Source: an uncultured Candidatus Bathyarchaeia archaeon
GTDB lineage: Archaea; Thermoproteota; Bathyarchaeia; 40CM-2-53-6
Length of the DNA: 26,333 nucleotides
Reading direction: 5' to 3'
Assembly: GCA_964484575.1 (NCBI GenBank)
Contig: CAZAGP010000279.1
Coordinates: 1 to 26,333 of the forward strand
The translations under genes and the position numbers were made by a program. Below the pieces are notes generated by a model, which saw only the letters and a program-made list of their open reading frames with translations, was not told the DNA's origin and did no database searches. Below are positions 114 to 26,333 of this stretch, piece after piece. How positions within the stretch are numbered: position 1 is the stretch's first letter; each line of letters starts with the position of its first letter.

Positions 114-264
114 TTCCGTATTCTAGACCTAAGGATACGCAAATATGTGCCTCTTAACCGTTGACTGAATTCGATCAATCTCCGTCCGGGGATAAACTGA
201 ACTGACGTAACTTCGTTAATCTATTTCGAAAGGCTCTTTGCCATCGTCACATTCTGCTTATGTC

Positions 265-1293
265 ATGTCGCGTGTAGCTCTTTATCTACAGGATAAGCAC
301 CAAGTTCGTGAAGAGCTTGAGTTTGTCCAATATGCTGAGAAGAAGGGTTTCGAGGCAATTTGGCACGCCGAATCACGATTAGCACGAGACGCTATCACTC
401 CCCTAGCTGCAATGGCTGTGGTCACAGAAAGGATCAAACTGGGAACGGGTGTGATCAACAATTGGACAAGAAACGTTGGTCTATGCGCTGCCACTTTTCT
501 CACATTAGACGAGCTCTCCGGCGGCAGGGCTCTTTTAGGCTTAGGAGCCTGGTGGGACCCGCTTGCTTGGAAGGTTGGGATAGAGCGAAAGAAACCGATC
601 AGAGCCATGCGTGAGTACTGTACTGTCCTTCAACGTCTTTTCAGAATGGAAAATGTGAGCTTCGATGGTGAGTTCGTACGAGTGCGTGACATTCGACTCG
701 ACGTCGTATATGGGGATCCGCAATCTCCGCGGAAAATTCCAATTTACATCGGAGCCACCGGATGGGATATGATCGAACTTACTGGCGAGATTGCGGACGG
801 CCTCCTTCTAAATTACCTTGTATCGCCAGGGTACAATGAGAGAGCGCTGGACCACCTGAAAGCGGGTGCTATGAAAGGAGATCGAAATTGGCAAGAGATA
901 GATCGTCCACAACTCATCGTCTGTTCTCTCGACGAGGACGCAGACAAAGCATTAGATGACGCACGACCACTTGTTGCGCAATATCTTGGCCAGCAACCTC
1001 ATATAGCGAAAGCTAGTGGAGTCAAGGAGAGTTTGATCGAAGAGGTTAAATCTGCTCTGGGTGGTTGGCCTGCAAAGCCGGGTGGATTAAAGGAAGCTCA
1101 ACTTCTCATCGATGACAACCTGGTTAGACTCATAACTGCCAGTGGCACTGCAGATGATTGCCTGAAGAAAGTGGAGGAGTACAAGAATACTGGATGCACG
1201 TGCCCCATTCTGTATCCGCTGGGAGAAGACGTCCGGGCGATGATTGACGTATTCCAAGTTCAACATCAGCAACCTGGTCCGTTGGTTGCTTAA
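265..1293 (+). CDS. LLM-class (luciferase-like) oxidoreductase, Mer-like, probably F420-dependent
   Basis: [56 protein letters not shown] motifs. ATG at 265 preferred over TTG at 238. Confidence 0.85.
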
Positions 1294-3473: not shown

Positions 3474-5270
3474 TTACTGGATGATTGGATCGACGAACTT
3501 GAAATTGACCGTGTCCAGCATCCCCTTATCTGTTATTCGCAATTTTGGAATGACTGAGAGCGTTGTCATAGCTAAATTCATGTACGGGGATGGAAGCGTG
3601 CAGCCCAACGTGACCCAAGCGTCTCTTAATAGGTCCACTTCCTGAACCACTGATTCGACAGGTTGGTCGGACATAATCCCTGCGATTGGTAGCGGAACGG
3701 TAGCAAGCACCTTTCCTTTGCGAGCAACTACCATCCCTCCTCCGCTCTTAATGACCTCGTTAGCAGCGATTAGCATCTCTTCTTCAGATGCACCCGCGAC
3801 GACCAGATTGTGACTATCATGTGCCACGGTTGAAGCTACTGCTCCTTCTCTTATCCCAAATCCTTTCACAAACCCGATCGATTTGTTGCCTGTGCCCTTG
3901 TGTCTTTCGAATACTGCAATCTTCAACACATCTTCGTCCACGTTAGCGTATACTCGACCATCTTTCGATGGGGCTTCCGCTTCCAAATTATCTGTGTAGG
4001 CGCTGGCCGGGATTATTCCGATAGCTCTCACCCTCACCGTTCGCTGGGATGTTTTCGATTTTATCGTGAAGTCATCCAGGGTGGGAGATGACTTGAGCAC
4101 GATCGACTTGCGAGTGAATTCGGGAAGTTTCGGAGAAGTAATGTTTGCTATCAGCTTCCCACCCTGCGAAACCACCTGTCCATTAGCAATCACCGTTCCA
4201 ATCCTCACGGTTGACAACCTGTCGAGAATTATCATGTCAGCAAGCCTAGCAGGTGCTATGCTTCCTAGATTTCTGGAGCATTCATAGTGTTCTGCTACGT
4301 TAATCGTTGCCATCTGGATCGCTCGAATCGGGTCAACGCCCTCTTCGATTGCTCGTCGCACAACGTGATCGACATGTCCATCAGTGATAATCGAATGTGG
4401 TTCCCTGTCATCCGTGACTAGGCAAATGTGCCTCGAGTCTAACTTTTCTTCTGTAATCGCGCGCACTGTATCAGCAACATCGCGCCACGCGGAGCTTTCT
4501 CGTAGCATAACGTACATTCCTAACCGAAGTTTTTGCACTGCTTCAATCTTCTTAGTAGATTCATGGCATGAAGTTATCCCGCTAGCAACGTACGCAACCA
4601 GGTCTCGGTCCAGAAGATTGACCGCGTGTCCTTCCACCACGCGGCCAGCTTTCAGAGTTGCGGCAAGTTCCCCGTGAACTTGTGGATCACTTGAGATTAC
4701 GCCAGGATAATTCATTATCTCACCGAGCGCGACCACTCCATTCCATTTTAACGCCTCTTCAACTTCCGCGGTGGTTATGCTTCCGCCTGTTGTCTCAAAA
4801 CCTGGAGCGGCAGGAACACATGAAGGGAAGGTTATTAGGACCTTCAACGGCAAATTTCGCGATTCATCTAGGAAGAATCGCACGCCACTCAAGCCTAACA
4901 CGTTGGCGATCTCATGGGGGTCTGCGAAAACGGTAGTTGAACCATGAGGGAGAACTGCTCTAGCTAATTCTGTGGCCGTAACCATCGCGCTTTCAATGTG
5001 CATGTGCCCGTCAATGAATCCTGGAACAAGATATCTACCCGCCGCCTCGATCACTTGTGTCGTCGGCCCGATAGTATGCTCAGCATGCCCAATGAAAGCG
5101 ATTCGATCCTTCTTTACTGCTACATCTTGCTCTTCAATGATTTCTCCAGAATTTACGTTAACTAATGAAACGTTCCGCACAACCAGGTCAGCCTTCAATT
5201 TGCCCGTCGCGGTGTCCACAAGCGTGCGGGTCATCTCGTGCAGGCGCGTTCTACCCTCAAACTCGAACAA
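3474..5270 (-). CDS. ade: Adenine deaminase
   Basis: 598 aa; GFIDGHMHIES (HxH), DPHEIANV, EGHA, CHE, VTDD and the C-terminal GA.ASTVAHDSHN...LPLPIAGIMS domain typical of AdeC. Confidence 0.92.
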   Translation of the reverse strand: MFEFEGRTRLHEMTRTLVDTATGKLKADLVVRNVSLVNVNSGEIIEEQDVAVKKDRIAFIGHAEHTIGPTTQVIEAAGRYLVPGFIDGHMHIESAMVTATELARAVLPHGSTTVFADPHEIANVLGLSGVRFFLDESRNLPLKVLITFPSCVPAAPGFETTGGSITTAEVEEALKWNGVVALGEIMNYPGVISSDPQVHGELAATLKAGRVVEGHAVNLLDRDLVAYVASGITSCHESTKKIEAVQKLRLGMYVMLRESSAWRDVADTVRAITEEKLDSRHICLVTDDREPHSIITDGHVDHVVRRAIEEGVDPIRAIQMATINVAEHYECSRNLGSIAPARLADMIILDRLSTVRIGTVIANGQVVSQGGKLIANITSPKLPEFTRKSIVLKSSPTLDDFTIKSKTSQRTVRVRAIGIIPASAYTDNLEAEAPSKDGRVYANVDEDVLKIAVFERHKGTGNKSIGFVKGFGIREGAVASTVAHDSHNLVVAGASEEEMLIAANEVIKSGGGMVVARKGKVLATVPLPIAGIMSDQPVESVVQEVDLLRDAWVTLGCTLPSPYMNLAMTTLSVIPKLRITDKGMLDTVNFKFVDPIIQ

Positions 5271-5445: not shown

Positions 5446-6837
5446 GTGAGCTCATTACTGGTGACCGGTGGAACTCTAATTACGATGGATACTCACAGGC
5501 GCATAATCACCGATGGCGGTATCCTGATTGAAGGCTCCCGAATATCGAAAATAGGCAAATCATCTGAAGTGAAACGTGAGTCGAGCGCGGAATTTGAAAT
5601 CGATGCCAAAGGAATGGTAATTCTGCCAGGGCTCATTGATGTTCACGTGCACCTCGCGCAAGCCATGTTGCGAGGATGCGCAGATGATACTTCACTGATC
5701 GATTGGCTCCAGAAGTTCGTTTGGCCTCTGCAAGGGAATTACGATGAACATGATGGCAAGGCAAGCGCCGAACTCTGCATGCTTGAAATGATCAAGTCTG
5801 GTACGACCACCTTCTTGGAAACGCATGTGCACAGACGCTACGGGTTCGACGGAATTGCGAAAAGCGTAGAGAGCAGTGGAATGCGCGGCATCCTAGCTAA
5901 GACAGTGATGAGCCTTCCTAGCTATGGTAGCCAGCAGAACATCATGCACCCAGGCATGATCGAAGACGGTGAGACATGCCTAAGGGAGGTTGAGGAGTAC
6001 TTCAAGAGATGGAATGGGAAGGCTGATGGTCGAATCAAAGTCTGGTACGGAGCAAGGTCACTGGGAGGGTGTACACCTGAACTCTATAGGAAGATAGCAG
6101 AGGGCGCAAAACGATTAGGAACAGGAGTAACGATGCATTTGGACGAAGTGCCCCAGGATGCAGAATATACTCGAAGAGAATTCAATAAATTGCCCGCGGA
6201 ATTTATGGACGAAGTGGGACTTACTGGTCCAAACGTTGTGTATGCTCATGGAGTTTGGTTGACTGAACCGGAATGGAAGATTCTGGCTGAGAAAGGAGCA
6301 ACAGTCGCTCACTGTCCGTCTTCTAACATGAAATTGGCTTCTGGAATCGCAAAGGTTCCTGAGATGATTAAGAGTGGGGTTAACGTGGGATTAGGATGTG
6401 ACGGGGGCCCTAGCAATAATTCATACGACATGATTCGTGAGATGAAGTTGGCCTCACTCGCTCAGAAAGCAAGATTACTCAACCCGCTTGTAATGGACGC
6501 TGAGACAGTTCTCGAACTAGCTACCATCAACGGAGCTAGGGCATTAGGGGTGGATAAGGAAATCGGCTCGTTAGAAGTTGCAAAGAAAGCCGATCTAACG
6601 CTCGTATCGTTACGGCAACCCCACCTAGTTCCAGCACACAATCCGGTCTCCCATTTGGTGTACGCCGCATCAGGATCAGACGTTGACACGGTCATAATTG
6701 ATGGACGAATTATAATGAAGAATCGTCAAGTGCTGACTCTCGATGAAGAGAAGATTATTCAAGAAGCTAACGAGCGTGGAACAAGGCTCTTGGCGAGAGC
6801 TGGAGTCACGATTAAACCCAAATGGGGATACGTTTGA
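5446..6837 (+). CDS. Metal-dependent amidohydrolase (MtaD / SsnA / guanine-deaminase-like superfamily)
   Basis: LPGLIDVHVH (HxH), MHLDE (HxxE), AHGVW, HCPSSNMKL, GLGCDG, GKKAD-like KKADL. Substrate cannot be assigned from motifs. Confidence 0.85.
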   Translation: MSSLLVTGGTLITMDTHRRIITDGGILIEGSRISKIGKSSEVKRESSAEFEIDAKGMVILPGLIDVHVHLAQAMLRGCADDTSLIDWLQKFVWPLQGNYDEHDGKASAELCMLEMIKSGTTTFLETHVHRRYGFDGIAKSVESSGMRGILAKTVMSLPSYGSQQNIMHPGMIEDGETCLREVEEYFKRWNGKADGRIKVWYGARSLGGCTPELYRKIAEGAKRLGTGVTMHLDEVPQDAEYTRREFNKLPAEFMDEVGLTGPNVVYAHGVWLTEPEWKILAEKGATVAHCPSSNMKLASGIAKVPEMIKSGVNVGLGCDGGPSNNSYDMIREMKLASLAQKARLLNPLVMDAETVLELATINGARALGVDKEIGSLEVAKKADLTLVSLRQPHLVPAHNPVSHLVYAASGSDVDTVIIDGRIIMKNRQVLTLDEEKIIQEANERGTRLLARAGVTIKPKWGYV

Positions 6838-6927: not shown

Positions 6928-7953
6928 CTAAGTGCGCTTTCCACTCATTGTAAGCGCTAGTACCGCCATCTTCGTGTACATTCCGTTCTCCGCCTGAGGG
7001 TAGATGACCGAGTGTCGTCCATCCAGCACTTCATCTGTAGCCTCTTCACCTCGCAGAACTGGCAGCACGTGAGTAACTATCGCTCGCTTACTCATCTTAT
7101 CAAGTAAATCCTGCGTGAGAGTCCAGTTTCGGTACTTCTCATGGATCTCCAGCTCTCGGTCCTTGCCGAACCTGCTTGCTCCTATTGAAAGAAGTTCATT
7201 CGTAGCCCAGTTTCTAGGAAAAACCGCGTTGGCTCCATCCAAAGCGGATTCGAGATCGTTAGTCACTGTGAATTCTGCTCCCTGGGCCAGGGCATTCGAC
7301 CTTGATGCATCAATTATTTTGGGGTCTAATTCGAATCCAGGGGGATGAGCCAGTACCACGTCCATACCGAAACGTGACATTATCAGTGCCTCTTCGTTAA
7401 TGCTGCAACGACCTCGAAAGCTCTTCGCGTATCCCCACATGATCACGTATTTCTTCCCTTTCACCTTGCTAAGGGCTTCTTCAGTCGTCATTAAATCAGC
7501 AAGGCCCTGTGTAGGGTGATACGTGCAGCATGCCATGTTAATTACCGGAATCTCAGCATGTTTCGCATACTCTCGGATGGTGGAGACTCCTACTCCAGAT
7601 ACGTAGTCGATTGCGGAGTCTAGGATTCGTACGCCCAAACCATGCCCATACTTCTCGTACATCTTAGCCACATCTCTGGCAGCCTCCCCAGAACCTAAAC
7701 GCGTAGTGGAAACGTCAATATACTGAGCATGTCCACCAAGATACGTCATTCCCGCTTCAAACGCTGCCCGTGTCCTAGTCGACGGAGCGTAGAAGAGCAT
7801 GAAGAATGTTTTAGCATTGAGTACGGGGAGGACTCTGCCGCGGTGATACTGTCGTTTCATCTCCTTGGCAGTCTTTAGGGTTGCTACAAGCTCATCAATC
7901 GACCAGTCTTGTGTGGTTATTAGGTCGCGCCCGCCCAAATCTACTTTAACCAA
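6928..7953 (-). CDS. Carbamoyltransferase-fold protein 1 (OTCase/ATCase superfamily, YgeW-like, non-canonical)
   Basis: STRT, HPTQ and HVLP motifs. TTG at 7953 follows GAAGGTGGG (SD-like), giving 341 aa; the track's extension to 8286 overlaps carbamate kinase. Confidence 0.88.
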   Translation of the reverse strand: MVKVDLGGRDLITTQDWSIDELVATLKTAKEMKRQYHRGRVLPVLNAKTFFMLFYAPSTRTRAAFEAGMTYLGGHAQYIDVSTTRLGSGEAARDVAKMYEKYGHGLGVRILDSAIDYVSGVGVSTIREYAKHAEIPVINMACCTYHPTQGLADLMTTEEALSKVKGKKYVIMWGYAKSFRGRCSINEEALIMSRFGMDVVLAHPPGFELDPKIIDASRSNALAQGAEFTVTNDLESALDGANAVFPRNWATNELLSIGASRFGKDRELEIHEKYRNWTLTQDLLDKMSKRAIVTHVLPVLRGEEATDEVLDGRHSVIYPQAENGMYTKMAVLALTMSGKRT

Positions 7954-8082
7954 TCTTTCCCACCTTCGGCGTCCACTATGACGGACGAGAAATTCTGCTA
8001 AATAGATGTTGCTAAACCCCAGCCAACGAGTCAAAGGTCTTAAGGGCCGACAGAGACCGGGTATACCACTTCCTGAGAGAGT

Positions 8083-9045
8083 GTGAGAGTATTGCCCGAT
8101 TCGTTGATCGTCATAGCACTTGGCGGGAACGCCCTTCTGCAAAGAGGACAGAAAGGAACCGTTGAGGAACAATATGAAAACATGAGGAGGACCGTTCCGA
8201 AGATAGCTGACCTGATCCAGAGAGGTTACAAAGTGGTTCTGACGCATGGGAACGGGCCGCAGGTTGGAGCAACCCTCCTTCGTCACGAGGCTGCTAAAGC
8301 TATCGTACCGCCATTCCCGCTAGATGCCTGCGGAGCAGAAACGCAAGGCTTCATCGGGTATATGATTCAGCAAGTATTGAGGAATGAGCTTAAGGCACGA
8401 GAAATTGAAAAATTCGTCGTAACGGTAGTCACACGCGTAATTGTCGATAAACACGATTTGGCCTTTCAGAATCCGACGAAGCCAATCGGACCATTCTATT
8501 CAAAGGATGAAGCGACTAAATTGAAGGAACAGAAACCCGATCTGGTGATTAAGGAAGATGCGGGTCGAGGCTACAGGCGAGTCGTACCTTCTCCTGATCC
8601 CAAGATAATTGCAGAGCGGACAGCTATACGTGCCCTCGTCGACGCCGGATTCGTTGTTATTGCTTGCGGAGGAGGAGGCATTCCCATAATCGAAGAGGAA
8701 ACCCAGACAGTGGGAGTGGAGGCAGTGATTGACAAGGACCTCGCGGCTCAGCGCTTAAGTACCCTGATCGGGGCACAAATCCTGATAATCCTCACCGACG
8801 TGGACGGGGCGTACATGAACTACGGAACCTCAAAACAAGAAATAATCAGACAAATCACTTCTGGAAAATTGAAAAACCATCTGAAAGAAGGACAGTTCAA
8901 GGAAGGCAGTATGGCACCAAAGGTTGAAGCTGCAATTCGATTCGTGGAGAGCGGTGGCGAACGCGCAGTTATTGCTGATCTCGGAAGTCTAGTTGAAGCT
9001 CTCGAAGGAAAAGCAGGGACGCAGATCACAGTGCCAAAAGCTTAA
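8083..9045 (+). CDS. arcC: Carbamate kinase
   Basis: ALGGNAL, THGNGPQVG, KPIGPF, EDAGRGYRRVVPSP, GGGGIP, EAVIDKD, GSMAPKVEAA. Alternative start TTG 8092. Confidence 0.95.
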   Translation: MRVLPDSLIVIALGGNALLQRGQKGTVEEQYENMRRTVPKIADLIQRGYKVVLTHGNGPQVGATLLRHEAAKAIVPPFPLDACGAETQGFIGYMIQQVLRNELKAREIEKFVVTVVTRVIVDKHDLAFQNPTKPIGPFYSKDEATKLKEQKPDLVIKEDAGRGYRRVVPSPDPKIIAERTAIRALVDAGFVVIACGGGGIPIIEEETQTVGVEAVIDKDLAAQRLSTLIGAQILIILTDVDGAYMNYGTSKQEIIRQITSGKLKNHLKEGQFKEGSMAPKVEAAIRFVESGGERAVIADLGSLVEALEGKAGTQITVPKA

Positions 9046-9083
9046 TTTAATCACAACTAATTCAGCGAAGGGTGGTAATTGAA

Positions 9084-10154
9084 ATGCCGTCATTCGTTGG
9101 TTTCTGGAAAGGCAAAGACTTTCTTGATACGAATGATTTTTCTCAGGAAGAGATCAAGAAGGTTCTTGATGCAGCCGACATTCTGAGAAAGAATTTCAGA
9201 TCACGTAAGAAACACCAGTATCTTTCCGGTCAAACACTCTTCATGCTTTTCTATAATCGATCACTCAGAACCAGAAACTCTTTCGAAGGAGGAATGTACC
9301 AGTTAGGAGGACATGCACACTTCCTCAGCCCTCAAGACGTCTATACTCCTGCCCTACCCGAAGACATGGTCGCCTATCAGACTGAAGCGATTTCGGACGT
9401 AGCGAGAGTCCTAAGTCGATACGGTGACGCAATAGCGATCAGAATCTATGGTGATGCAGCGAAATGGGTGATCGGACGAGGTCACAAGGTAGTTCAGGAA
9501 TTCGCAATAAACGCTACAATTCCTGTGCTTAACATGGAAGACGACATGTACCATCCGTTCCAGGCATTAGCCGACGTCCAGGCAATGCGGGCTGCTATTC
9601 CTAAACTCGCTGGGAAGAAACTTGTAGTTTCCTATGCTTACTCTGGCGGACTGAAGCCATTAGCTGTACCGCAAAGCGAAGTTCTCATCGGAACTCAAAT
9701 GGGAATGGAAGTTGTGCTCGCCCACCCACCCGGATTTGAACTAGAAGAGGTAGTGCTGAAAGCTGCCAAAGCGAACGCGGACAGATATGGTGGAGATTTC
9801 AAAATCGTAACTGACATGAAAGAAGCATTTGACGGAGCGGACGTGGTGTATCCTAAAGCGTGGTCACCAAAGAACTACTTTCCACCGCACAGAGCCGAAC
9901 TAGACAAGCAAGGCGCGATGTCGCACCAAGACAAGTACAAGAGCTGGATTTGCACTCAAGAGATGATGGATCTCACAAACAAGGGAAAATACATGCATTG
10001 CGGACCCGCAGACAGAGGCCAAGAAGTTACAGATGACGTGATCGACAACATGAACTATTCACTGTACTTCGAAGAAGCCGAAGATCGTCTCCACGTGCAG
10101 AAGGCGATTATGGCGATGGTGATGGGCGGTCGTCCCTCTCGTCGTCGGAAATGA
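9084..10154 (+). CDS. Carbamoyltransferase-fold protein 2 (AOTCase/SOTCase/YgeW-like, non-canonical)
   Basis: SLRT, HPFQ, YPKAW, MHCGP and EAEDRLH motifs. ATG 9084 follows AGGGTGG (SD-like). Confidence 0.88.
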   Translation: MPSFVGFWKGKDFLDTNDFSQEEIKKVLDAADILRKNFRSRKKHQYLSGQTLFMLFYNRSLRTRNSFEGGMYQLGGHAHFLSPQDVYTPALPEDMVAYQTEAISDVARVLSRYGDAIAIRIYGDAAKWVIGRGHKVVQEFAINATIPVLNMEDDMYHPFQALADVQAMRAAIPKLAGKKLVVSYAYSGGLKPLAVPQSEVLIGTQMGMEVVLAHPPGFELEEVVLKAAKANADRYGGDFKIVTDMKEAFDGADVVYPKAWSPKNYFPPHRAELDKQGAMSHQDKYKSWICTQEMMDLTNKGKYMHCGPADRGQEVTDDVIDNMNYSLYFEEAEDRLHVQKAIMAMVMGGRPSRRRK

Positions 10155-10663
10155 AGACGAGTCGAACGCCGGACCAAACCCCGATTGTTCTAGCAAACTG
10201 GGGGAGGCGAATTATCGCTTGGTTCGTAGACTATGTCATAATCAGTATATTATTGGGATATTTCCAGCTTGAGACAGTAGAGACCAGAATGTTTCCGGCT
10301 GCTTTGCTACCGAAGGCTCCAGGAACGGATATTTCGGTTTGGTCGCCCTTATCGATTCTAATCTTCTTTCTGTACTTCACATTCTCAGAATGGTACCTTG
10401 GAAGGTCAATAGGGCAACTACTATTGAATGTTCGAATTGTTGACGTCCAAGGGAAAGCCCTCAGTTTACGCGCATCGGCAATTCTAGGCATAGGTAAATC
10501 GAACCCACTTTTCCTGTTATTTGATTGCCTCATTGGTCGAGCTTACAGACCAAGTCGCGAACTGCGGCAAAGATTAACGAATAGAATTTCCAATACAATT
10601 GTCATATTCATCGGAGAGTCAGCCAGAACGATTGAGCAAGACGGTTACATGAAGGAACCCTGA
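10151..10663 (+). CDS. RDD-family membrane protein
   Basis: LANWGRRIIAWFVD, hydrophobic segments, GRSIGQLLL.VRIVD and RQRL...ISNTIV. ATGA overlap with the upstream stop. Confidence 0.8.
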   Translation: MKTSRTPDQTPIVLANWGRRIIAWFVDYVIISILLGYFQLETVETRMFPAALLPKAPGTDISVWSPLSILIFFLYFTFSEWYLGRSIGQLLLNVRIVDVQGKALSLRASAILGIGKSNPLFLLFDCLIGRAYRPSRELRQRLTNRISNTIVIFIGESARTIEQDGYMKEP

Positions 10664-10742
10664 GCTGAAGCGAGAGTTTCATTTCAAAATGACAAGGGGT
10701 TTCCTTATACCAATAATCAGCAATTACTTATGAAGAAACAGC

Positions 10743-11687
10743 ATGGCTGACTACGACGTAGTCATTATCGGATCAGGTCCAGCAGGTTTGACTGCTGCAG
10801 TATACTCTGCTCGAGCACTTGTGAGAACTCTTGTAATTGCTGGCAGAGTTTCTGGCGGACAACTCATGTTAACCAGTACAGTTGAGAACTTCCCCGGATT
10901 TTCCAATGGAATCCAAGGACCGGATCTCATGGTAGAAATGCGAAAGCAAGCTGAACACTTCGGAGCGGAAATTGTTGACGACGATGTGGAATCCGTAGAT
11001 TTCAAAAAGAAATTGAAGCGAATTGTCTTTGGTAAACGATCGGTAACTTCAGATGCCGTGATAATAGCAACAGGTTCCTCTGCGAAATGGCTTGGAATAC
11101 CGTCGGAAGCGAAATTGCGCGGTCGCGGCGTCTCAAGTTGTGCGACATGTGATGGATACTTCTTCCGAAACAAACCTGTGGCAGTAGTTGGCGGGGGCGA
11201 TACCGCTATCGAAGAAGCATTGTTCTTAACCAAATATGCAACAGAAGTTGAGATAATCCATCGGCGCGATAAGCTTCGAGCAACTAAAATTATGCAACGA
11301 AGAGCCTTATCAGAGCCTAAGATTCTATTCCGCTGGGATTCTGTCGTTGATGAGATTCTTGGTCAGAACAAAGTGGAAGGCCTCAAGATCAGGAACTTGA
11401 AGACGGGTGAAGTGTCAATGTTACCAGTCGAGGGAGTTTTTATGGCTATAGGATTTCAGCCAAACACGAAAGTCTTCGAAGGCCAGATCCAACTTGACGA
11501 AAAAGGGTACGTAGTAGTTACAAACAATACGGAGACAAGCGCAGAGGGCGTATTTGTCGCGGGAGACGTCCACGATTACAAATACAGGCAGGCCATTACC
11601 GCTGCGGGAGAAGGCTGTAAGGCTGCAATTGACGCTCTATCCTACCTAGACAGGCAGAAGGAAATTGCCATCACGACTCATGAATGA
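10743..11687 (+). CDS. trxB: Thioredoxin-disulfide reductase
   Basis: GSGPAG FAD motif, GGQL, GVSSCATCDG (CxxC), VGGGDTA.EEA, FVAGDV...YRQAITAAG.G. Confidence 0.95.
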   Translation: MADYDVVIIGSGPAGLTAAVYSARALVRTLVIAGRVSGGQLMLTSTVENFPGFSNGIQGPDLMVEMRKQAEHFGAEIVDDDVESVDFKKKLKRIVFGKRSVTSDAVIIATGSSAKWLGIPSEAKLRGRGVSSCATCDGYFFRNKPVAVVGGGDTAIEEALFLTKYATEVEIIHRRDKLRATKIMQRRALSEPKILFRWDSVVDEILGQNKVEGLKIRNLKTGEVSMLPVEGVFMAIGFQPNTKVFEGQIQLDEKGYVVVTNNTETSAEGVFVAGDVHDYKYRQAITAAGEGCKAAIDALSYLDRQKEIAITTHE

Positions 11688-24553: not shown

Positions 24554-24883
24554 TTGGTGCAATGGCGAAGGCGGGAGGAAGTAATAGGCAAAGATGTCAT
24601 CGATAGCGACGCCAACAGGATCGGAAGCGCTAAGGATCTTGCTTGGTCTGAGGATGGAGTATTTGCACTAGTTGTAGAAGGCGTAGACGAAGAGGAGTCA
24701 TTCCTACCGTTTGATAATGTTGAGAGGGTTGGTGACGTGATCTTTGTAAAAGCGAAGACATCACTCGTATCAATTCCGACAAGGCCCTGCCCTATGTGCA
24801 AGCATAGGAATCCTATGGAAGCTATGTTCTGTGCAAAGTGTGGACGCGCGCTCGAGGAAGATGAAAAATCGGTGAAGAAATGA
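24554..24883 (+). CDS. PRC-barrel domain protein with C-terminal zinc ribbon
   Basis: VIGKDVIDSDA.RIG.AKD...LPFDNVERVGDVIFV is PRC-like; CPMC-x9-CAKCG follows. Confidence 0.75.
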   Translation: MVQWRRREEVIGKDVIDSDANRIGSAKDLAWSEDGVFALVVEGVDEEESFLPFDNVERVGDVIFVKAKTSLVSIPTRPCPMCKHRNPMEAMFCAKCGRALEEDEKSVKK

Positions 24884-24945
24884 TACAGCTTGGTAAGCCG
24901 GTCACATTGTTGCAAAACAGTATGCTTCCTATCACGTAACAACGT

Positions 24946-25001
24946 AAAGTTGCGTCTAATATGCAAGTGCAACTTTCGTATATCCTGAAGCGCGTATAAT
25001 A
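24946..25001 (+). promoter_or_regulatory. Inverted repeat AAAGTTGC-N15-GCAACTTT followed by a TATA-like TATAATA
   Basis: Perfect 8-bp arms at 24946-24953 and 24969-24976; TATAATA at 24995-25001, about 30 nt before ATG 25030. Confidence 0.45.
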
Positions 25002-25029
25002 ATACGATAAACGGGAGTGTATACTCAAA

Positions 25030-26333
25030 ATGGGTTCAGTGAGCATAAACAGACGTCTTTCGACACTCTTCCTGTTCATCCTAGTCATACTCATGCTGTC
25101 TAGTCCGTTGGGACTGCTGATTCCAGCTCAGATAGTTCCACGCGCCTCAGCCATGACCGTCTCAGCTGCTCCCTCCTCCAGTTTCAGTCTGAATGAATGG
25201 AATGTACCCACGCCAGGTTCAGGTCCATGGGGCATAACCACAGACCAGCTTGGTAACATTTGGTTCACGGAAAACGTGACGAATAAGCTTGCAACCTATA
25301 ACCCTAACACCAATAATTTCACGGAATGGGGCATACCCGGCGGAGGAAGCCCACGATATGTCTTCACGAAGCAAGCACCAACGAGCATCAGCGGCGGCAG
25401 GAATGTAACCCAAGTTTATTTCACGGAATACTCCTCGAGCAAAGTTGGCTACTTCAACAGTTGGAATGGAACGTTCTATGAGTGGCAGTTGCCAGCAGGC
25501 AGCAACCCTGTTAGCGTCTTCGTTGACGATAATTACACCATCTGGTTCACGGAATCAGGTCGGGATGTTATTGGACGCCTTACGCCAGCCACGAATCAGC
25601 TGACCGAGTGGACCCTTCCCGGAGCAACGACCGCGGCGGGAACCCCGTCACTTAAACCGTGGGGAATTTTCGTCCAGTCCGCGTTAACCGGAACATACCA
25701 TAACGTAACCGATCGATACGTTTGGTTTACGGAATTGTCAAATAACGCTATTGGAAGACTCCAAATAACGAACAATCTTCTGATCCTGTGGGACCTGAGC
25801 AGTATCAACATTATTCCTGGACTTAACTATGGACCCATGGACATCACAGTAGACTCAACCAACCCAGGAAACGTCATCTTCTCCGCAAGCACGGGCGATC
25901 GAATCTCAGTACTCCAGAACTGCGGCACGACGTGTACAGGCTACACTGAATATGCTCTCCCGTCTCGAACATCAATCGCGAAACCTACGAGTGTCACCGT
26001 GGATTCGTCGCGTGGTGGAGTCTGGTTCCCGGAGTATAATACCGGGATAGTGGCTTTTGCTGACAGATCAGCGCAAGGAGAGACGGGCGCCGTTCCAACT
26101 TCTACGGCGTGTGTAATCCCACCGACCGCGGGTCCTGCATGCTCAACGCCTTCTGGATATTCAGCAAAAACAGTAACGCCAACGGTTACCAACAATGTGC
26201 AAGGTTATTCTAGTATCGGAAATCCGTTGCCCTCAGCTGCGGTTTCCGTTTACCAGGGACCAATTAATGGCGTCACAGAATACAAACTGCCAACCAACAA
26301 TTCGCTACCTAACTTTGTCACAGTCGATTATCA
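25030..26333 (+). CDS. Secreted or membrane-anchored Vgb-like (virginiamycin B lyase fold) beta-propeller repeat protein, truncated by the window end
   Basis: Manual translation from ATG 25030 is open for 434 codons to the edge: N-terminal RR plus hydrophobic stretch, then repeats of TEW.LP...P..I..D...IWFTE...K/.IG. Absent from the ORF track because no stop codon is in the window. Confidence 0.85.
   Translation, partial: MGSVSINRRLSTLFLFILVILMLSSPLGLLIPAQIVPRASAMTVSAAPSSSFSLNEWNVPTPGSGPWGITTDQLGNIWFTENVTNKLATYNPNTNNFTEWGIPGGGSPRYVFTKQAPTSISGGRNVTQVYFTEYSSSKVGYFNSWNGTFYEWQLPAGSNPVSVFVDDNYTIWFTESGRDVIGRLTPATNQLTEWTLPGATTAAGTPSLKPWGIFVQSALTGTYHNVTDRYVWFTELSNNAIGRLQITNNLLILWDLSSINIIPGLNYGPMDITVDSTNPGNVIFSASTGDRISVLQNCGTTCTGYTEYALPSRTSIAKPTSVTVDSSRGGVWFPEYNTGIVAFADRSAQGETGAVPTSTACVIPPTAGPACSTPSGYSAKTVTPTVTNNVQGYSSIGNPLPSAAVSVYQGPINGVTEYKLPTNNSLPNFVTVDY

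Follow-up and report, generated by a model that had tools for sequence, protein, structure and literature searches.

A conserved archaeal carbamoyltransferase subfamily next to carbamate kinase, with a predicted new second-substrate pocket and a possible role in reductive purine breakdown

Introduction

What does a carbamoyltransferase do when the residues that hold carbamoyl phosphate are in place but those expected to hold the second substrate match no established enzyme? This question is raised by a gene at positions 6928-7953 of contig CAZAGP010000279.1 (assembly GCA_964484575.1), a stretch of 26,333 nucleotides from an uncultured Candidatus Bathyarchaeia archaeon that is called the window below. 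The gene and its product are referred to as CT1 (carbamoyltransferase 1), and two paralogues of the same genome as CT2 and CT3. Transcarbamylases form a textbook family with about nine known specificities, and CT1 is named 'ornithine carbamoyltransferase' (OTCase) in public annotation. A preliminary description of the window had seen in it a mosaic active site that fits no standard specificity class, and had offered two explanations, a new substrate specificity or a partly degenerate subunit. Our preferred answer, to which we assign a probability of about 0.55, is that CT1 is an active carbamoyltransferase that would act catabolically, by phosphorolysis of a ureido compound, in an archaeal form of the reductive purine pathway, with a substrate that we infer from the protein sequence and the genes in its company.

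Results

CT1 is read from the minus strand, the plus-strand frame of the same interval being full of stops. The open reading frame (ORF) starts with TTG (plus-strand caa, 7951-7953) and ends with TAG (plus-strand cta, 6928-6930), and both Pfam domains of the family are present over their full length (OTCace_N, PF02729, 129 bits, E 2e-37; OTCace, PF00185, 112 bits, E 3e-32). The longest mechanical ORF, 6928-8286 on the same strand, encodes 452 residues from a GTG at 8286. The 111 N-terminal residues that it adds lack homologue support and overlap the start of the divergent carbamate kinase (CK) gene (Table 1), and the CT1 orthologues begin with the same M-x-K-V-D-L as the protein started at 7953; the 7953 start is therefore preferred. 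Gene callers that take the longest ORF would mis-annotate this start. The translation carries FYAPSTRTR (S58-R62), GVRI (R109), HPTQ (146-149), FPRNW (245-249), HVLP (295-298) and QAENG (G324), so that its signature can be written STRTR / R85 / HPTQ / W173-x-Y..R180..S184 / FPRNW / HVLP / QAENG. The carbamoyl-phosphate motifs that the preliminary description had called intact (STRT, R109 in GVRI, and HPTQ) are all found in the minus-strand translation, as is each of the replacements it had listed (FPRNW in place of the DxxxSMG loop, HVLP of HCLP, and QAENG of QAENR), and the absence of RxQxER is borne out by the translation and by residue mapping. CT1 is a member of the aspartate/ornithine carbamoyltransferase superfamily, with the features that mark it (PMC4581275): both Pfam domains, SxRT, HPxQ, HxLP and the arginine of beta4.

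A scan of one genome per prokaryotic species gave at least 322 relatives, the best 80 of which, at 56-92% identity, come from Bathyarchaeia, Desulfurococcales, Hadarchaeota, Nitrososphaerota, Korarchaeota-type, Baldrarchaeota and Hodarchaeota metagenome-assembled genomes (MAGs). Conservation was assessed over 81 CT1-type proteins. Invariant (81/81) in the first half of the protein are S58-T59-R60-T61-R62, R85, E90, R109, H146, P147 and Q149, and in the second half W173, R180, S184, F245, R247, W249, H295, V296, P298, R301, E304, Q320 and A321. At position 324, where OTCases have the arginine of the ENR motif, the set holds glycine (45), asparagine (27), leucine (4), arginine (3) and serine (2), the arginine thus being missing in 78 of the 81. 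Since they are kept over this set, the features of CT1 that resemble decay represent a conserved family signature. In comparison with the closest orthologue, the ratio of nonsynonymous to synonymous substitution (dN/dS) is 0.054, with a dS of 0.83, and CT1 is under purifying selection.

On this pattern CT1 is predicted not to be degenerate. A degenerate or regulatory subunit that has no catalysis of its own and works only in mixed trimers with CT2 would explain the absence of both the ENR arginine and the cysteine of HCLP, and would suit the adjacency of CT1 and CT2 in 26 of 35 loci. We consider such a subunit very improbable, because the other carbamoyl-phosphate ligands are invariant and the 'missing' residues are a family trait, because aspartate carbamoyltransferase (ATCase) too lacks that arginine (PMC4581275), because of the low dN/dS, and because CT1-type genes stand without CT2 within 10 kb in 12 of 12 Hadarchaeota loci and in the P0122 operon described below. 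The partly degenerate subunit of the preliminary description is set aside for similar reasons: its odd residues, including the missing arginine, recur as a signature in 81 archaeal orthologues under strong constraint, and the pLDDT of the structure model is 97.

The model was made with AlphaFold 2 (AF2) from an 83-sequence alignment. It has a mean pLDDT of 97.1 and a pTM of 0.94, and gives with confidence the carbamoyltransferase fold. In VIA-align comparisons with solved carbamoyltransferases, Z ranges from 38 to 45. The best match is the knotted N-acetylornithine carbamoyltransferase (AOTCase; Z 44.7, 1.4-1.6 A over 315-318 residues), followed by Pyrococcus furiosus OTCase (Z 42.3, 1.9 A, 313 residues), the YgeW-type transcarbamylase (YTCase) of Enterococcus faecalis (Z 42.2, 1.7 A, 324 residues) and Escherichia coli YgeW (Z 39.0, 2.1 A, 319 residues). 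Compared with OTCases, CT1 has an extension of 10 residues in the 120's loop and another of 5 residues in the 'knot loop', both of which align without gaps to AOTCase; extension of these two loops marks the knotted group (Shi et al. 2015, PMC4581275), in which the loop after beta6 threads through the 240's region as a trefoil knot, and CT1 is a candidate for such a knot. The segments WGYAKSFRGRCS and LAHPPGFEL align gaplessly to the 'knot' loop and next strand of AOTCase and YgeW, and the knot loop of CT1 is not proline-rich (GYAKSFRGR vs TYHPKPLN in AOTCase).

Active-site residues were mapped from the list in PMC4581275. The carbamoyl-phosphate ligands S58-T61, R109, H146, Q149 and L297 are kept, and G324 stands at the position of OTCase R319 and YgeW K364, where the basic residue is lost. 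The invariant R85 occupies the position of the 80's-loop residue that enters the active site of the neighbouring subunit (Q82 in OTCase, S80 in ATCase, Q98 in YgeW and W77 in AOTCase). It may compensate for the lost C-terminal Arg/Lys in the manner of S80 and K84 in ATCase, an enzyme which likewise lacks the C-terminal carbamoyl-phosphate arginine (PMC4581275). Around the second substrate, A141 corresponds to AOTCase E144 and YgeW Q160, so that the Glu/Gln anchor is absent, the invariant R180 to YgeW K203, the invariant R247 to AOTCase K252, YgeW K270 and OTCase D231, and V296 to the Cys of HCLP. The roles of R85, R180 and R247 are putative. The mapping shows an intact, conserved carbamoyl-phosphate site combined with a new second-substrate pocket, which is lined by the invariant R180, R247, W249, V296 and R301 and is predicted to be more cationic than that of any characterised class. 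This suggests a small, carboxylate-bearing (anionic) ureido substrate, and not ornithine, aspartate or putrescine.

CT1 scores below the curated cut-off of every NCBIfam model. The OTCase models TIGR00658 and NF001986 both give 204 bits (cut-offs 281 and 306), the AOTCase model NF003384 196 (cut-off 288), the putrescine carbamoyltransferase (PTCase) model TIGR04384 180 (cut-off 500), the ATCase models 140-143 (cut-offs 237-263; TIGR00670 140 vs 237), and the YgeW models NF005538 and TIGR03316 129 and 121 (cut-offs 453 and 500). The claim that CT1 fits no standard specificity class agrees with these scores and with its separate, well-supported clade in the trees described below. In comparison with the individual classes, CT1 differs from OTCases in having FPRNW over D231..S235-M236, V296 for C273 and G324 for R319, and it falls outside the OTCase clade. 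The OTCase of P. furiosus (PDB 1A1S/1PVV), 36% identical, shares STRTR, HPxQ and the short 80's loop with CT1, which has FPRNW for DxxxSMG, HVLP for HCLP and glycine for the ENR arginine, and the 10- and 5-residue insertions in the 120's loop and knot loop, absent in OTCases. The catalytic chain of E. coli ATCase (PyrB) resembles CT1 in lacking the C-terminal Arg/Lys ligand, with 'NG' in both, and its S80, which reaches the neighbouring active site from the 80's loop, aligns with R85; the RxQxER of the 240's loop, HPLP and R167 have no equivalents in CT1. As to PTCases, FYAPSTRT has Ala where FxQxSxRT has Gln, and the C-terminal extension of about 20 residues is absent.

CT1 could also be a plain OTCase, PTCase or ATCase whose motifs have drifted. 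Public annotation names it an OTCase, and the best sequence match among solved structures is the P. furiosus OTCase (171 bits, followed by AOTCase with 137 and YgeW with 118). This explanation is scarcely credible. The genome, a Bathyarchaeia MAG that is 80% complete, has five carbamoyltransferase family members, among them an OTCase (DVWVSMG, HCLP) and an ATCase (RIQKER, HPLP), both canonical and both encoded outside the window, and CT1 is therefore not the ArgF or PyrB of the cell. Moreover, CT1 has neither DxxxSMG nor the PTCase loop nor RxQxER, and its scores lie far under the cut-offs of those models. Agmatine deiminase was not found in the genome, and the only arginine deiminase (ADI) superfamily match is weak and lies on another contig; the arginine deiminase and agmatine deiminase pathways were dropped as candidates for this reason.

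For the phylogenetic trees, representatives taken from a library of 1.8 billion proteins were combined with ArgI, PyrB and YgeW of E. coli and with the paralogues of the genome itself, and analysed with FastTree (115 rows) and IQ-TREE (LG+C20 PMSF, 66 rows). With ATCase as the outgroup, both trees contain a supergroup (support 99-100) made up of the YgeW clade, the AOTCase clade, whose members score 414-531 bits on the AOTCase model, and several unnamed clades. Inside this 'knotted' supergroup of AOTCase, N-succinylornithine carbamoyltransferase (SOTCase) and YgeW, the CT1-type sequences form their own clade (support 96-98), apart from YgeW, AOTCase and OTCase, which is the outcome of the transcarbamylase phylogeny that the preliminary description had called for. 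An approximately unbiased (AU) test rejects a single clade of the CT1 family and the YgeW core (delta lnL 90.8, p 1.6e-5; 37 rows, LG+G4, the tested group having been named after the tree was seen). By its placement CT1 belongs to a distinct, mainly archaeal subfamily of the 'knotted' supergroup and is not assigned to the YgeW family. The AU test, and second-substrate positions unlike those of OTCase, ATCase, AOTCase and YgeW, speak for the new specificity of the preliminary description, and its likeness to YgeW is real but is shared by the whole supergroup. One member of the CT1-type clade, P0132, a representative in the CT3 sub-branch, has eroded catalytic motifs (YCNEAVRAR for FYxxSTRTR, FNPIQ for HPTQ, HDLP for HVLP) and is a candidate true pseudo-enzyme.

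Of the named enzymes in this supergroup, the AOTCase of Xanthomonas campestris (PDB 3KZK/3KZC) is the best structural match, with the same lengths of 120's loop and knot loop. It is 30% identical to CT1, whose 80's loop is short, OTCase- or YgeW-like, and has R85 and no Trp, and its substrate pair E144/K252 is A141/R247 in CT1. CT1 does not lie in an arginine biosynthesis cluster, and the sister of the AOTCase clade is CT2, not CT1; neither AOTCase nor SOTCase is thus indicated. E. coli YgeW (a YTCase) has in common with CT1 the knotted-type supergroup (support 100), the adjacency to CK, the gene company of amidohydrolase, hydantoinase, xanthine dehydrogenase (XDH) and pyridoxal phosphate (PLP) enzyme, the extended 120's loop, the length of the knot loop, an xPxxW segment, and basic residues (K203 and K270, matched by R180 and R247). 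However, it is only 29% identical and forms a separate clade. With 396 residues it is 55 longer than CT1 (341), which lacks the extra N- and C-terminal helices of YgeW and the insertion of about 10 residues in its 240's loop, and the two differ in HCLP/HVLP, Q98/R85, Q160/A141 and K364/G324.

The surroundings of CT1-type genes were compared over 84 loci, in which ORFs were clustered de novo and the clusters named with Pfam and NCBIfam. Neighbours were counted in the 35 loci whose CT1-type gene has 8 kb or more of sequence on either side, CK and CT2 being scored within 10 kb. CK is present in 27 of the 35 and CT2 in 26, followed by a fold-type-II PLP enzyme (23), a TRZ/ATZ amidohydrolase (18), a Bmp-type substrate-binding protein with ABC parts (11), a PreA/UacX-like DHO_dh + 2x4Fe-4S reductase (8; 210 bits to the PreA model), a D-hydantoinase/dihydropyrimidinase (6; 476 bits vs cut-off 393), subunits of a molybdenum hydroxylase (5) and a luciferase-like (LLM) enzyme (5). 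Genes for adenine deaminase or nucleoside ABC transporters occur at some of the loci as well. LLM genes recur beside CT1-type genes and XDH subunits. Among 30 relatives, all 20 genomes that bear CT1, a number in which the present genome is counted, also carry CK. The back-to-back arrangement of CT1 and CK-CT2, with some 150 bp separating CT1 from the oppositely oriented CK, is kept in at least 14 genomes of the same genus, and CT1 and CK form a conserved module. In one genome of the genus (G013, contig C1) the CK match consists of two neighbouring segments (24600-25121 and 25137-25616), and no kinase separates CT1 from CT2, which adjoin each other; this is possibly a frameshift or a rearranged variant of the module.

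Of the 84 loci, 35 have a threonine-synthase-like and 13 a cysteine-synthase-like form of the linked PLP enzyme. The former (L007:11042-12292 and 34 other loci) has about 416-425 residues, scores over the PRK08197 cut-off and, although absent from the window, is the most conserved neighbour over archaeal phyla apart from the carbamoyltransferases and CK. In Desulfurococcales the order is CT1-CT2-CK-amidohydrolase-PreA-like-PLP, the amidohydrolase being SsnA-like (28% identical to E. coli SsnA), and a 'Hecatella' locus adds HyuA-like (37%) and YgfK-like (36%) genes. A clade member at 55% identity, P0122, lies in an operon of transporter, carbamoyltransferase, M20 hydrolase and CysK-like PLP enzyme; along its whole length this hydrolase shares 31% identity with YgeY of E. 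coli, and the layout mirrors ygeW-ygeX-ygeY of E. coli. In a group of Bathyarchaeia loci (L022-L033) two further gene clusters (c11 and c12) recur, both a few genes off the CT2 side of the module: a class-III aminotransferase and a gene resembling 2,4-diaminopentanoate dehydrogenase, which scores 287 bits with the Ord model (cut-off 400). They hint that a product of the diamino or beta-amino acid type is processed further. The Bathyarchaeia-type order CT2-CK-CT1-PLP-amidohydrolase-LLM-2Fe2S, with a CT1 79% identical to ours, is also seen on a contig of 7.8 kb assigned to 'Candidatus Acidoferrum sp.' (Acidobacteriota; L028, DASQZS010000039.1), which probably reflects a binning error rather than a bacterial copy.

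Table 1. Coordinates of the features in the window around CT1
Feature	Position	Strand	Evidence or remark
[2Fe-2S] small subunit of an XDH-family molybdenum hydroxylase, first 37 codons, running off the contig end	3..113	-	homologue by CT3
LLM oxidoreductase, candidate F420-dependent ring reductase	238..1293	+	PF00296
Adenine deaminase	3474..5270	-	TIGR01178, 561 bits (cut-off 472)
TRZ/ATZ-family amidohydrolase or deaminase, convergent with CT1	5446..6837	+	nearest models below cut-off
CT1, uncharacterised archaeal carbamoyltransferase subfamily, 341 residues	6928..7953	-	translation, motifs, Pfam, trees, dN/dS, AF2
Intergenic region CT1/CK, 129 bp, divergent	7954..8082		sequence
CK, only one found in the genome	8083..9045	+	TIGR00746 (arcC), 430 bits (cut-off 358)
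CT2, second carbamoyltransferase paralogue, 35% identical to CT1	9072..10154	+	SLRTR, HPFQ, YPKAW, HCGP, EAEDR
RDD membrane protein and thioredoxin-reductase-like flavoprotein	10151..11687	+	Pfam

In the window itself (Table 1), the CK is 47% identical to E. coli YqeA. The amidohydrolase gene beside CT1 comes nearest to the models for 5'-deoxyadenosine deaminase, guanine deaminase and SsnA, but stays below the cut-off of each. Beyond the adenine deaminase the window also holds two regulators and a TIM-barrel protein. The pair of RDD protein and thioredoxin-reductase-like flavoprotein was found at 15 loci, all of Bathyarchaeia type, and is a neighbour of the module only in Bathyarchaeia. Elsewhere in the genome, CT3 (L006:5060-6085, minus strand) is a CT1-type protein 51% identical to CT1, with FPRSW, HVLP and QAENL. 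It lies on a 6.6-kb contig (C130), directly downstream of a second XDH-family 2Fe-2S subunit with Fer2_2 and Fer2 domains that is homologous to the one at the window's left end; the contig also holds a metallophosphoesterase, an amino-acid permease, an LLM oxidoreductase and the N-terminus of an SsnA-like amidohydrolase. Joining this contig, which carries the C-terminal part of its 2Fe-2S gene, to the left end of the window was rejected, as no sequence overlap exists, and the two 2Fe-2S fragments are different genes because both cover the same homologous region. Another contig (C232, L112:7561-12329) has a divergent pair of an SsnA-like (406 bits, cut-off 455) and a hydantoinase-like gene (323 bits, cut-off 393), flanked by a NUDIX-IF-2B fusion (ribose-1,5-bisphosphate-isomerase-like) and a MobA/MocA-like cytidylyltransferase, a gene set which recalls the ssnA-xdhD-mocA region of E. 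coli. A third contig (C309) carries an XDH trio.

Discussion

The gene company of CT1 is best compared with a pathway of E. coli and clostridia, in which 2,3-diureidopropionate is formed from urate by an enzyme of the XDH family, a reductase (YgfK, or UacX of PF01180), SsnA and HyuA. Of its two ureido groups, one is then phosphorolysed by YgeW, with YqeA making ATP, and the other is removed hydrolytically by YgeY; the deamination of diaminopropionate is carried out by YgeX (bioRxiv 10.1101/2025.04.24.650524; PMC12507026). The two reports disagree over which ureido group YgeW takes. Clusters in Chloroflexota have an F420 luciferase-family (LLM) enzyme in place of the reductase YgfK/UacX (PMC12507026). 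Archaea are mentioned in neither report, and a full-text literature search found no paper on archaeal CT1-type enzymes.

By analogy, CT1 would convert a ureido compound and phosphate to an amine and carbamoyl phosphate, from which the adjacent CK would form ATP, NH3 and CO2. The substrate would be one ureido group of 2,3-diureidopropionate, or the mono-ureido product, after reductive opening of the purine ring, and CT2 would take the other group, the one that E. coli YgeY removes hydrolytically. The direction of the reaction, the identity of the substrate and the division of labour between CT1 and CT2 are proposed here from sequence and gene order. The archaeal module appears to have counterparts for nearly every step, the threonine-synthase-like PLP enzyme possibly being that of YgeX, and it has two carbamoyltransferases; on the simplest reading, each of the two ureido groups would be recovered in the form of carbamoyl phosphate. 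If so, each purine would yield two carbamoyl phosphates, compared with one in E. coli.

Several observations weigh against this assignment. The amidohydrolase adjoining CT1 scores nearer to guanine or 5'-deoxyadenosine deaminases than to SsnA, and the hydantoinase, PreA-like and XDH genes lie near CT1 in a minority of loci only. No orthologue of YgeX (diaminopropionate ammonia-lyase) was found in the genome or among the neighbours, where there are only weak PLP-fold matches, and the PLP enzymes linked to CT1 are ThrC-like and CysK-like. Hadarchaeota CT1 genes have no CK or CT2 within 10 kb. The pair of PreA-like reductase and dihydropyrimidinase fits pyrimidine breakdown equally well, and two further points, the contexts of the sister clade and the carbamoyl-phosphate supply of these genomes, are taken up with the anabolic alternative below.

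A competing assignment is pyrimidine breakdown, in which CT1 and/or CT2 would phosphorolyse beta-ureidopropionate or beta-ureidoisobutyrate produced by a PreA-like reductase and dihydropyrimidinase; the hydrolytic beta-ureidopropionase would be replaced, and the breakdown of uracil or thymine would give ATP. Both the PreA-like DHO_dh + Fer4 protein and the D-hydantoinase/dihydropyrimidinase of the CT1 loci are in line with such a route, and the class-III aminotransferase near the module in Bathyarchaeia could take beta-alanine. We nevertheless judge it unlikely, since the genes linked to the module also include those for adenine deaminase, XDH-type molybdenum hydroxylases and SsnA-like amidohydrolases, since two or three carbamoyltransferases suit the two ureido groups on a purine skeleton, and since UacX (PF01180) and the hydantoinase HyuA are purine-pathway enzymes as well (PMC12507026).

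An anabolic function has also to be considered, in which the kinase makes carbamoyl phosphate, like the CK-like carbamoyl-phosphate synthetase of the Pyrococcus type, and CT1 carbamoylates an amino acid, for example a diamino acid, to a ureido metabolite. CarB (TIGR01369) was not found in this genome nor in 12 of the 16 CT1-bearing genomes of the same genus. Several of these CarB-negative genomes are 98-100% complete and all of them have CK, which in the present genome is represented by the single gene in the window. CK or catabolic carbamoyltransferases may therefore be the only source of carbamoyl phosphate there, and the kinase could run in the synthetic direction, so that the module could feed biosynthesis. 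The cysteine-synthase-like (SbnA-like) and threonine-synthase-like PLP enzymes, which are the commonest neighbours other than carbamoyltransferases, and the biosynthetic-looking contexts of the sister clade (P0124, P0126) are consistent with this possibility, and a diaminopropionate carbamoyltransferase of anabolic type is a known class (PMC4581275). On the other hand, the recurrent neighbours are those of catabolism and uptake (deaminases, hydantoinase, ring reductases, XDH and nucleoside ABC importers), and the P0122 operon of carbamoyltransferase, YgeY-like hydrolase and PLP enzyme resembles a catabolic one. An anabolic role for CT1 is for these reasons quite unlikely.

A wider form of the catabolic purine assignment can be outlined for Bathyarchaeia that lack carbamoyl-phosphate synthetase. 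In these organisms CT1-CK-CT2, together with CT3, would recover both ureido groups of the opened purine and serve as an ATP-yielding step of fermentation and as the sole supply of carbamoyl phosphate for pyrimidine and arginine synthesis, and CT1 would represent a new substrate class. We put this forward tentatively and hold it to be doubtful as a whole.

The subfamily has at least 322 relatives among prokaryotes sampled at one genome per species and has its own active-site signature. Its recognition corrects a systematic mis-annotation, as thousands of metagenomic proteins of this subfamily are annotated 'ornithine carbamoyltransferase'. The CT1 module suggests that archaea possess an older and more energy-efficient form of the reductive purine pathway, which in gut bacteria was elucidated as recently as 2025. 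CT1 and its relatives occur in lineages of peat, sediment and hot springs, and would bear on how uncultured Bathyarchaeia and related archaea ferment nucleic-acid bases.

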